From a virus (Duplodnaviria > Caudoviricetes), in the IMG/VR virus record IMGVR_UViG_3300011336_000071, positions 1-34,728 of that record: a DNA stretch of 34,728 nt. One strand, written 5' to 3'. The notes below the pieces were generated by a model. That model saw nothing but the letters and a program-made list of their open reading frames with translations, did no database searches and was not told the DNA's origin. The position numbers and the translations under genes are program-made. This document shows positions 3,127-34,570 of the stretch, in pieces (positions within the stretch are counted from its first letter, which is position 1; the number at the start of each line of letters is the position of its first letter).

Positions 3127-3216
3127 TGTCGTTGATCTCGCGGTTGATGACAAGTTGTTCTCCTTCTAGCATCGACTAGTTACCCCTGACAGTTCACGCT
3201 GTCAGGGGTTTTTCTT
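3127..3216 (+). ncRNA. Putative ~90-nt sRNA with an anti-Shine-Dalgarno seed
   Basis: -10 box upstream; 5' hairpin GUCGUUGAUC/GGUUGAUGAC; single-stranded GUUGUUCUCCUUC (3154-3166); strong plus-strand terminator; no plus-strand ORF. Confidence 0.5.
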
Positions 3217-3986
3217 TGGGAGGTTGATTCTAGTCCTTGGGGTAAAAGACACTCCACCTCTTGGATTCTTTTGCCGATCCATGCCATCACAGGCACGGCC
3301 ATGCTGTTGCCCAGAGCCTCGTAGCGTGGCCCGTCTGGCGTTGGCTTGCCCTTGAGCTTAATGTCGGTGTAGTTGTCAGGAAAGCCCTGCAAACGCTCGC
3401 ACTCCTTTGGAGAGAGCCTGCGCACTTGCATGGCGGTGCGCAAATCAAGTCCACCAGCATTTTGACTAATGCGATAGCCCTCAGTTGTCATTGCAGGCGC
3501 AACATCAACCTCGCGAATGGCGTGAAAGTTTTCTTCAAACGCCACCGCCATAGGATTCTTGGCTTGCAGCGTCTGGGTCATGTCCACATCAGTCTGTGGG
3601 TTTGACATCTGGCCGCTGAAAGCAATCGGCTGCGCCACCGCATGGCTATGTCCCTTGGTCAGGGTGAAACTAGGGTCACCGGGTTGGCCAAAACCTAACC
3701 CTCCGCTTGAATGTCCCGGTGTCATATTCATGGTGTCAATGGGGATTGCTTGCGCCACCCCATGCACACACGTGGCGTTCAGCGTGTACATCGGACCGCC
3801 TTCAGTAAACCCATCGCCATTGCCGCCGTTCTCAGGTTTGCGGCCTATGGTGTTTTCTGCGAGAGCAATGGGTTCGCAGCTAAAGTGACCCCCTGTTGTA
3901 GGAATCAATGTCTCTGTTTCTGCGTCCATGCGCGTCTTGGTTATCAGGCATTTGCTTACCAAGGGTAAACAACCCCCCCCCCCCAC
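3180..3986 (-). CDS. C5 DNA methyltransferase, C-terminal part (variable/TRD region, motifs IX and X); out of frame after the G12 tract
   Basis: VRRLSPKECERLQGFPDNYT (motif IX) and RYEALGNSMAVPVM (motif X); the ORF begins at the poly-G tract. Confidence 0.85.
   Translation of the reverse strand: MGGGGCLPLVSKCLITKTRMDAETETLIPTTGGHFSCEPIALAENTIGRKPENGGNGDGFTEGGPMYTLNATCVHGVAQAIPIDTMNMTPGHSSGGLGFGQPGDPSFTLTKGHSHAVAQPIAFSGQMSNPQTDVDMTQTLQAKNPMAVAFEENFHAIREVDVAPAMTTEGYRISQNAGGLDLRTAMQVRRLSPKECERLQGFPDNYTDIKLKGKPTPDGPRYEALGNSMAVPVMAWIGKRIQEVECLLPQGLESTSQRKTPDSVNCQG
3182..3217 (+). terminator. Rho-independent terminator
   Basis: ACCCCTGACAG-ttcacg-CTGTCAGGGGT followed by a T-rich run (TTTTCTTT). 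The U-tail is on the plus strand only. Confidence 0.8.
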
Positions 3987-4744
3987 CCGTTGATATGCTG
4001 ATTTTCCAAACCTTGCTTATCGCCAAAATGTGCGTCAATCGTTGGGGCTACTTCTGCTGGCCAAGTCGCCATCAAGTGACCTTGTGCGGCGTCTTGAACG
4101 CTGATGCTTTGTCCTGTTCGGGCGCAAAGGCTACCGACTGAAGGGCTTGCTCTAGTGCTGGCGGCAGCACCTTGCCCCTTTTCTCTGCTCGGCGCAGGAT
4201 ACCCGCACAGGCTGTGGCGCTCAAAAAGAACCGCTGCGGCAGGTCGCCAGTTTCCAAGGTATCCGACAACGAACACACGGCGGCGGCGTTGGGCCACTCC
4301 GAAGTACTGAGCGTCAAGAATTCTGTATGCGAACCCATACCCGAGTTCGCCCATCCCTCGAAGGAGGGAGGCAAAGTCGAGTCCTCCGTTAGAGGATAGG
4401 ACGCCGGGGACATTCTCCCAAACCAGCCACTGGGGCCGATACTTTGCAGCAATGGCAAGGTAGGTAAGCATGAGGTTGCCACGAGGGTCATCCAATCCTT
4501 TTCTGAGTCCGGCGACTGAGAATGATTGGCAGGGAGTTCCTCCAACGAGAACATCGACATCTGAGACATTTGTCCACTCCTTAAATTTGGTCATGTCGCC
4601 CACATTGGGCGTGTTTGGGTAATGGTGTGCAAGCACCTGTGATGGGAACTTTTCGATCTCAGAGTAAGCCGCAGCCTCCCATCCAAGGGGATGCCAAGCG
4701 ACTGTTGCGGCCTCAATGCCAGAGCAAACGGATAAGTACCTCAC
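3956..4744 (-). CDS. C5 cytosine DNA methyltransferase, N-terminal part (motifs I-VIII)
   Basis: LSVCSGIEA (motif I), GGTPCQSFS (IV), ENVPG (VI), QRRRRVF (VIII). Confidence 0.93.
   Translation of the reverse strand: MRYLSVCSGIEAATVAWHPLGWEAAAYSEIEKFPSQVLAHHYPNTPNVGDMTKFKEWTNVSDVDVLVGGTPCQSFSVAGLRKGLDDPRGNLMLTYLAIAAKYRPQWLVWENVPGVLSSNGGLDFASLLRGMGELGYGFAYRILDAQYFGVAQRRRRVFVVGYLGNWRPAAAVLFERHSLCGYPAPSREKGQGAAASTRASPSVGSLCARTGQSISVQDAAQGHLMATWPAEVAPTIDAHFGDKQGLENQHINGWGGGVVYPW
3973..3984 (-). repeat. G12 homopolymer at the MTase frameshift
   Basis: 12 C on the plus strand; G13 or G10 would fuse the two MTase ORFs. Confidence 0.9.
4072..4569 (-). CDS. Nested alternative-frame polypeptide, EcoHK31I beta-subunit-like
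   Basis: 165-aa same-strand ORF entirely inside the MTase. WANSGM...EWPNAAAVCSLSDTLE...FLSATACAGILRRAEKRGKVLP resembles my recollection of the M.EcoHK31I beta polypeptide. Confidence 0.7.
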   Translation of the reverse strand: MSQMSMFSLEELPANHSQSPDSEKDWMTLVATSCLPTLPLLQSIGPSGWFGRMSPASYPLTEDSTLPPSFEGWANSGMGSHTEFLTLSTSEWPNAAAVCSLSDTLETGDLPQRFFLSATACAGILRRAEKRGKVLPPALEQALQSVAFAPEQDKASAFKTPHKVT

Positions 4745-5790
4745 TGCTGCTTCTCCTTAACAAGACTAGCAGCAGCATGCTTCTCACCGATCAGGTCTTC
4801 GCTAATCTGGATGTCCAACTTGGCAATGGCTGACGGGGACTTCAAGTCGAATGCCTGCGGGTAGGACTTCAAAGCCTCGTAGGCCAAGGCGTCAGACTTC
4901 CAGAACTTGGTCTTGCGACCTGGTCGCAATGTCCAGCCTTGGATGGTTGACCCCTCGGTGATCTGACGCTTGGCTGACTCCAGCACTGCCTCCGACCACA
5001 TGGCTGCAAGCTGCGCCAGTTCAATGTCTTCTGGGGTGACTGGCGGCACTGCAATCGTGTCATCCTTGTCGGCCTTTTTTACAAGGTCTGCAAACTCTTT
5101 GCGTGCGTTGTCCTGCACCTTGGCACGCATAGACGGGCAAATGGGCTTGGCCTTGCAGTAGCGGCAAGCGCTGGTGGACGGGTTGGTCGGTGCGTCATCG
5201 GTCAAAGCTAGGTTGGCAGCGGCCAGCAGGTCGTGGCCGTGCTTGATGAGGTCAGTGCCTGAGACTGTCCATTGGCTGTGGCCGGCGCGGGGCTGGAAGA
5301 TGTGCATGGTGCATTGAATGGATTCAGGCGCATTCAACATGCGCATGACGCCCAGAGCGTAGGTCAGCATCTGCTTGTTGTCCTCTGCCTCGACCAAGAC
5401 GCGCCCTGTCTTGAGGTCTACGATGTGAAGGTGGTCGCCATCGACCAGCACGGCATCAGCAGTGCCGCCGAGGGACTGGTGCAGCGTCTTGAGGCCGGCA
5501 TCCACATTCACCTCGATCATGCGCTTGCGGGGTTTTTCCACCAGCGTGTTGATGAAGGTGGCGTATTCGTTGGCCATGTCAATGTGGTCATCGGGATAGT
5601 CTTCTGCGTTGACCGCCTCGCCCCTCAGAATACGCTCGGATAGCTCATGGATAGCCTTGCCAATTGCGGCAGCCTCACCGGCTGGCTCAAAAGGCATCTT
5701 CTCTTCAAGCCGGTAAGAGCCTGGACAACTCATCACCCGATCCATACGGGATGCCGAGAGTCGGGCGTGTTTTCTGGTTTCATGTTGCAT
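4741..5790 (-). CDS. DUF2800 PD-(D/E)XK (Cas4-like) nuclease
   Basis: HARLSAS...CPGS, GTADAV, IVDLKTG, QMLTYALG and CRYCKAKPIC; strong RBS AAGGAG. Confidence 0.85.
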   Translation of the reverse strand: MQHETRKHARLSASRMDRVMSCPGSYRLEEKMPFEPAGEAAAIGKAIHELSERILRGEAVNAEDYPDDHIDMANEYATFINTLVEKPRKRMIEVNVDAGLKTLHQSLGGTADAVLVDGDHLHIVDLKTGRVLVEAEDNKQMLTYALGVMRMLNAPESIQCTMHIFQPRAGHSQWTVSGTDLIKHGHDLLAAANLALTDDAPTNPSTSACRYCKAKPICPSMRAKVQDNARKEFADLVKKADKDDTIAVPPVTPEDIELAQLAAMWSEAVLESAKRQITEGSTIQGWTLRPGRKTKFWKSDALAYEALKSYPQAFDLKSPSAIAKLDIQISEDLIGEKHAAASLVKEKQQ

Positions 5791-34421: not shown

Positions 34422-34570
34422 GGGATTTTTAAAAAAAAATTTTTTTTTAGGGGATTGAGGGTTGGTAGGTGTTGAGTGCCGCATCAGCCGCCCCCGCCAA
34501 GGCGCGGGACGGGGGGGGTCGCGGCGCGGCGCCGGCCAGCCGACCAGCGGCCTGCCCCAGAAACCGAGGG

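Follow-up and report, generated by a model that had tools for sequence, protein, structure and literature searches.

A phage DNA cytosine methyltransferase gene whose nested reading frame probably encodes a second chain carrying a connector segment

The idea of a DNA cytosine methyltransferase whose second chain is encoded inside the gene for the first is already known from M.EcoHK31I and from the annotation of Streptococcus phage MM1. In M.EcoHK31I (YGGCCR; PMC2836561) the beta chain lies in the +1 frame wholly inside the alpha gene, and motif IX is found in beta and is missing from alpha. According to that paper, the enzyme needs beta, N-terminal deletions of beta weaken the association, and from deletion 65 to deletion 70 there is a marked loss of activity. 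In MM1, ORF13 and ORF14 are entered in GenBank as alpha and beta subunits, a status known from annotation alone; beta is again nested in the +1 frame, here without motif IX, and alpha has motifs IX and X. A different division is described in PMC3404938 for M.AquI, where a split in the variable region places motifs IX–X on a separate chain and there is no nested chain. In the single-chain C5-methyltransferases (M.HhaI, M.HaeIII and phage enzymes of the LKDILE…KYYLS type) an LxDIL segment follows motif VIII in the same frame, and a long +1 open reading frame (ORF) is lacking.

The window analysed here spans an entire virus record (34,728 bases), estimated to be 98% complete, with genes for a portal, major head protein, terminase, tail fibre, endolysin, holin and recombinase; close sequence matches come from river and freshwater metagenomes. 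Its C5-methyltransferase gene lies on the minus strand, flanked by a DUF2800 exonuclease and a primase-helicase, with an SNF2 helicase and a small zinc-ribbon ORF as further neighbours. The parts of the locus are as follows.

3956..4744, minus strand: alpha, N-terminal part (motifs I–VIII and the start of the variable region); PF00145 profile positions 1–164, E 1.4e-42; TIGR00675
4577..4582, minus strand: Shine-Dalgarno-like AAGGAG, lying 7 nt ahead of the ATG of the nested gene
4072..4569, minus strand: nested beta-like gene, 165 aa, +1 frame, no motif IX; phrog_16143, E 2.4e-6
4529..4531, minus strand: codon of the motif IV catalytic cysteine (PCQ) in alpha, invariant in 99 alphas
4141..4275, minus strand: conserved core of the nested chain, residues 99–143 (CSLSDTLE…RFFLS…helix…LP), from invariant columns, AlphaFold and hhalign
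3973..3988, minus strand: G tract; the window has G3-T-G12, other assemblies of the phage have G14 (in frame), and one has G12
3180..3986, minus strand: alpha, C-terminal part (variable-region cassettes, motifs IX and X); PF00145 profile positions 256–323, E 6.4e-10

Alpha has the C5-methyltransferase (PF00145) motifs I, IV (PC), VI (ENV), VIII, IX and X, the last two at about 3261–3431; the catalytic role of the motif IV cysteine in this enzyme class is established. The nested ORF spans alpha codons 59–224, covering motifs IV–VIII and about 60 codons further, and its core is overprinted on motif VIII and the codons after it. An earlier, sequence-only reading of this DNA had noted a 165-aa ORF starting with ATG over motifs IV–VIII, and this was confirmed at 4072–4569 on the minus strand, in the +1 frame of 3956–4744. 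The variable region within 3180–3986 is a string of swappable cassettes, and relatives with 76–98% core identity have alphas of 303 to 588 aa.

As the reference for M.EcoHK31I we used an E. coli locus reached via a published primer; its alpha has 309 aa and its +1 beta 176 aa, and it adjoins a NotI-family endonuclease. It matches four of the five published EcoHK31I primers tested and has Met17 and Met26 as described in PMC2836561, and we therefore treat it as a near-identical EcoHK31I allele. The nested chain of the window aligns to this beta with 36% identity over 98 aa (E 3e-14), with LSxxLE in the same register on motif VIII. The alignment, which had been proposed as a check, bears out the WxNSGM…CxLSxxLE…FL…RA..R…LP pattern that the sequence-only reading had given as common to the two. 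Its statement that the nested chain is without motif IX, which lies past the G tract, also held: motif IX of the EcoHK31I-like beta aligns to the C-terminal alpha ORF of the window and not to the nested chain. Thus the two layouts agree apart from motif IX, which the window's alpha keeps and which in M.EcoHK31I has its place in beta; the window enzyme further differs from M.EcoHK31I by its G tract and by a cassette-type variable region of greater length. Whereas M.EcoHK31I sits beside a restriction endonuclease, the window enzyme is a phage orphan, none being found among the 33 other window ORFs scanned, a subset of all ORFs.

The layout is closer to that of MM1, where LSxxLE likewise lies 9 codons past motif VIII and alpha runs from motif I to motif X, as it does in this phage in the G14 allele of the tract. 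The MM1 beta is only about 31% identical, however, its C-terminal helix is shorter and its gene has no G tract.

The comparison of homologs indicates that the nested 165-codon ORF (4569–4072) is a real gene under selection, present in nearly all relatives. Homologs were found with the alpha frame only, and the best 80 of 599 viral loci were used. The +1 frame is open across alpha codons 62–205 in 77 of these 80; two of the others end naturally at codon 204, and the third, L064, is interrupted by an internal stop. In the +2 frame every one of the 80 loci has between 1 and 10 stops. Against a null of synonymous recoding of alpha, the nested frames of 76 distinct sequences hold 1 stop where 305.6 are expected, and an upstream control gives 238 against 195 expected; as the sequences are related, these counts overstate their independence. 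The window's own 165-codon ORF is more than chance: among 20,000 synonymous recodings of its alpha the probability of no stop in the nested frame is 0.0056, and the longest open +1 stretches in 12 other window genes are 57–107 codons.

The start and the codon usage of the overlap give the same picture. A Shine-Dalgarno-like site and a start codon are found at the nested-start position in 78 of 81 sequences, the start codon, mainly ATG or TTG, alternating at one position. At four-fold third positions the overlap shows a difference of 0.235, compared with 0.638 in codons 1–57 and 0.620 over motifs IX and X, and the third base is fixed in 19 of 52 conserved four-fold codons in the overlap and in none of 11 upstream. 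Beyond alpha codon 179 beta is better conserved than alpha (0.89 against 0.69, then 0.64 against 0.32). Stop codons among homologs and synonymous-site constraint were the two checks that the sequence-only reading had put forward for this frame, and both came out on the side of a coding nested frame. The nested-frame stop of L064 lies at alpha codon 130 and is the sole internal stop among the 80 loci; alpha is intact there, and an in-frame Met five codons after the stop would still give the beta core.

What the nested chain may contribute was approached through its invariant core, CSLSxxLE…P.RFFLS followed by helices. In an AlphaFold model of beta alone (mean pLDDT 53) this core is the only confident part, two thirds of the chain being of low confidence. 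Pfam and NCBIfam hold no family for the nested chain, and a PDB sequence search with its profile returned chance hits only. A pattern search for DILE…KY[YF]L gave 120 viral loci, of which 65 were left after setting aside 33 out of register, 19 not parsed as C5-methyltransferases and 3 duplicates. In 58 of the 65 distinct viral C5-methyltransferases the motif is in frame, 25–66 residues after motif VIII, and the +1 ORFs are at most 90 codons. The other seven have it in the +1 frame, within ORFs of 123–174 codons and at a constant 9 codons past motif VIII. Genes of the MM1 type have the motif in the +1 frame only, in all 75 distinct parsable genes (of 80 loci; 73 by pattern and 2 by eye). In-frame and +1 placements of the segment are mutually exclusive in every gene parsed.

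The in-frame segment and the nested core can also be aligned directly. By hhalign, the in-frame segment matches the beta alignment over 34 columns (probability 94, E 1.2e-7), evidence that is good but not independent since the in-frame set was chosen by a beta-inspired pattern and part of the likeness is built in. With a profile of the in-frame segment, 58 of 99 betas score at least 10 bits, and none of the 99 matching alphas scores above −3.7 bits. MM1-type betas reach 39.9 bits; the window's own beta gives only 3.5 bits (best of 2,000 shuffles, 1.9), so that the connector link rests on the family profile and the MM1-type betas. The in-frame LKDIL aligns to VKDLL of M.HhaI (192–196), a stretch which we take to link the large and small domains, and the alpha profile match ends at M.HhaI 171. 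Alpha is without the LxDIL…YLS segment and beta has it. On these alignments the nested chain probably supplies the LxDIL…YLS segment that follows motif VIII, a point that the earlier reading had missed.

Our preferred explanation, which we put at a probability of about 0.72, is that the gene is dual-coding and specifies what is likely a DNA cytosine methyltransferase of two chains, in which beta would give the connector in trans. Alpha, with motifs I–X, would be translated from 4744 and reach about 520 aa if the G run keeps the frame; beta would be translated from its own internal Shine-Dalgarno site in the +1 frame. The C-terminal core and helices of beta are predicted to dock on alpha after motif VIII, where they would complete the connection to the small domain carrying motif IX. 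The heterodimer would methylate cytosines in phage DNA against host restriction, a role suggested by an orphan enzyme placed among replication genes. M.EcoHK31I would derive from the nested layout by motif IX moving to the tail of beta.

In the same explanation the likeliest role of beta is that of a required subunit needed for full activity. As the EcoHK31I beta also has motif IX, its requirement is not automatically transferable to the nested chain. By the published primers and our alignment, however, the residues removed between deletions 65 and 70, as given in PMC2836561, are exactly the LSxxLE motif, with motif IX left in place. Phage SpSL1 carries a nested beta homolog, and PMC6755750 reports an active m5C enzyme that methylates 102 of 113 RCGRC sites; enzymes of the nested layout can thus be active.

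The alternative that survives best, although we consider it unlikely, is that beta is real and is a dispensable modulator (a stabiliser, inhibitor or timer) or has a different target. Alpha holds the full set of ten motifs, and in a model of the alpha of the close relative L012 it folds alone into a confident M.HhaI-like core (pLDDT 78, Z 26), as in the single-chain enzymes; this model and the nested stop of L064 with an intact alpha are among the counter-points to the two-chain reading. The low confidence of two thirds of beta modelled alone points the same way, as does the fact that betas of the coliphage P1 type match the nested chain only over the C-terminal 65 residues. Against a modulator stand an alpha lacking the very segment that beta carries and two placements that exclude each other, and the deletion series of EcoHK31I beta, as described in PMC2836561, points to the shared motif.

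The sequence-only reading had further proposed that all three minus-strand frames are coding and that the enzyme might have three chains. The window tract reads G3-T-G12 at 3988–3973, and the end of the N-terminal alpha ORF at 3956 is specific to this allele. Among contigs from eight sequencing runs, those of three, from two studies, bridge the tract with two bases fewer, giving G14 in frame; in the other five runs the contigs end at or near the tract and are uninformative on its length. The window's allele was found in none of the eight. The relative L120, 99.9% identical over 3.6 kb, has G14 and one alpha of 520 aa, and L142 has G12 together with a 56-nt deletion. Some of these G14 and G12 assemblies of the phage may derive from the window's own source, and the window also shows a base of its own at 3770. 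In 75 of 77 complete alpha-picked relatives a single ORF carries alpha from motif I to motif X, and the two exceptions both break at G12.

The third frame is therefore due solely to the window's G3-T-G12, other assemblies having G14 at that place. Three ORFs do use three frames, as had been claimed, but the nested ORF and the C-terminal ORF (3180–3986) never overlap, so that any one base is read in two frames at the most, and the G14 assemblies are in frame. We favour an assembly error in the record as the cause of the break at the G run, a minority slippage allele, again not a third subunit, being the somewhat less probable cause.

A separate C-terminal chain with motifs IX–X, as in M.AquI with a nested beta added, is accordingly improbable, and the three-chain enzyme proposed earlier was not upheld as the normal state. 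It would be consistent with mycobacteriophage Omega, where gp127 combines motifs I–VIII with the nested frame while motifs IX–X belong to a second gene, gp128, that starts at an ATG of its own, and with the 13 of 38 distinct G-tract junctions in the +1 state (below). A short [LM]F[VT] pattern kept by synonymous codons in a frame that then stops also favours it. Against these stand the in-frame G14 of L120 and of contigs from three runs (two studies), the lack of a ribosome site ahead of any possible start of the C-terminal ORF, and the continuous alpha of 75 of the 77 relatives. M.AquI resembles the out-of-frame allele and Omega in having motifs IX–X on a separate chain; unlike M.AquI as described in PMC3404938, the window phage has a nested chain and the split is not its main allele.

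The tract itself varies across the family. Among 44 loci with this G tract there are 38 distinct junctions in the contigs, 19 in frame, 13 in the +1 and 3 in the +2 state, with 3 unassessable, and the near-twins L101/L133 and L119/L127 show a one-base difference in tract length. In L100–L143, [LM]F[VT] is found right after the G tract, kept by synonymous codons in a frame that stops 25–75 residues further on (32 junction types), while the next frame has a conserved VAxCL cassette downstream. A contingency locus (phase switch) at the G tract is plausible for this sub-lineage, although contigs alone cannot tell one from homopolymer error. It would resemble the phage contingency loci described in bioRxiv 10.1101/2025.10.21.683753, where a homopolymer run of variable length lies inside a phage gene; the tract lengths of the window family, by comparison, are known from assembled contigs alone. 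In two separate records (L385 and L398) another tract, G9, breaks alpha after motif VIII, and in L419 (1201–2487) a G10 run puts the variable region and motifs IX–X on the beta frame and not the alpha frame.

Programmed +1 frameshifting or transcript slippage, by which the nested core would be made as a fusion to alpha and not from its own start, is very improbable. The nested core is homologous to a segment normally found after motif VIII in the same chain, and of the 120 best longer database hits, 94 fuse beta with motif IX and/or X. However, one chain cannot hold both the core and motif VIII, since the two overlap, and the Shine-Dalgarno site and nested start are conserved; motifs IX–X lie on the nested frame in just 1 of the 62 distinct viral loci fetched with such a fusion, at a G10 run, and the fusions were downgraded as support. 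That the open frame is a shadow of the highly conserved alpha codons of this region, or an RNA or DNA signal with no protein, is most unlikely given the stop deficit against an amino-acid-preserving null, the higher conservation of beta after alpha codon 179 and a homolog characterised as a protein in PMC2836561.

We also noted several features of the wider genome. A word-avoidance scan found the window strongly poor in palindromes, with ACGT seen 6 times against 115 expected and GGWCC, CGWCG, CCSGG, CTGCAG, CCATGG and GCGCGC near zero over 1–34728. Such scarcity is typical of restriction pressure; many palindromes were avoided in the scan, and the methyltransferase target was not singled out among them. 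Contigs of runs X3, X5 and X6 have small indels near the alpha C-terminus (window 3171–3190), and one contig each from X3 and X6 skips the entire methyltransferase gene (window 3218–4765, with a short anchor), which suggests that there are relatives without the gene. RNA runs contained no more than 5–9% of the sequence words. Near the record end, beside the recombinase, are an A9 run followed directly by T9 (34431–34448) and a G8 run (34511–34518).

The nested chain is widespread. Its profile matches 5,384 clusters at 50% identity, and tblastn with the nested chain gives 165 phage and 536 plasmid records, including P1 dmt, Omega, Bcep22 and MM1; it is annotated in MM1 and unannotated in P1 and Omega. 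In coliphage P1, dmt contains an unannotated +1 ORF of up to 162 codons with the beta core (NC_005856 66713–67201; L082:2216–2704), and Shine-Dalgarno-like sites lie ahead of ATGs at 66788 and 66857 of that record. The same ORF type is found in several hundred P1-like plasmid records, and the P1 dmt record gives cytosine methylation only as 'perhaps'. The two annotated genes of Omega (gp127/gp128, L083:1688–2992), in which alpha is split before motifs IX–X and the nested frame is also present, are a candidate for a natural three-chain enzyme. In a literature search that covered few subscription journals we found no paper that deals with how widely the nested gene occurs, with its presence in P1 dmt or with a connector reading of beta.

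In alpha-core trees the nested types group together, and a single origin of their layout was not rejected (p-AU 0.58, from quick trees only). The trees had 56 rows, and then 52 after four long branches were dropped; for the second tree, four rows were relabelled because the nested pattern match had been too strict.

A broader reading, which we hold tentatively and at somewhat less than even odds, is that a branch of phage, prophage and plasmid C5-methyltransferases, including P1 Dmt, has its connector on an overprinted subunit. The 'motif IX subunit' of EcoHK31I would then be a late derivative, and poly-G would switch full-length alpha, with beta intact, in one sub-lineage. P1 dmt is a classic model in which the nested-subunit reading can be tested directly. 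If the connector reading is true, M.EcoHK31I would be reinterpreted, the conserved job of beta being the connector and not motif IX. Thousands of phage methyltransferases would be two-chain enzymes with an unannotated subunit, and codon-optimised or recoded clones would silently lose beta and look inactive, a loss that bears on methylome surveys, anti-restriction work and phage engineering. The family would also offer a clear case of a protein segment relocated into an overlapping frame.
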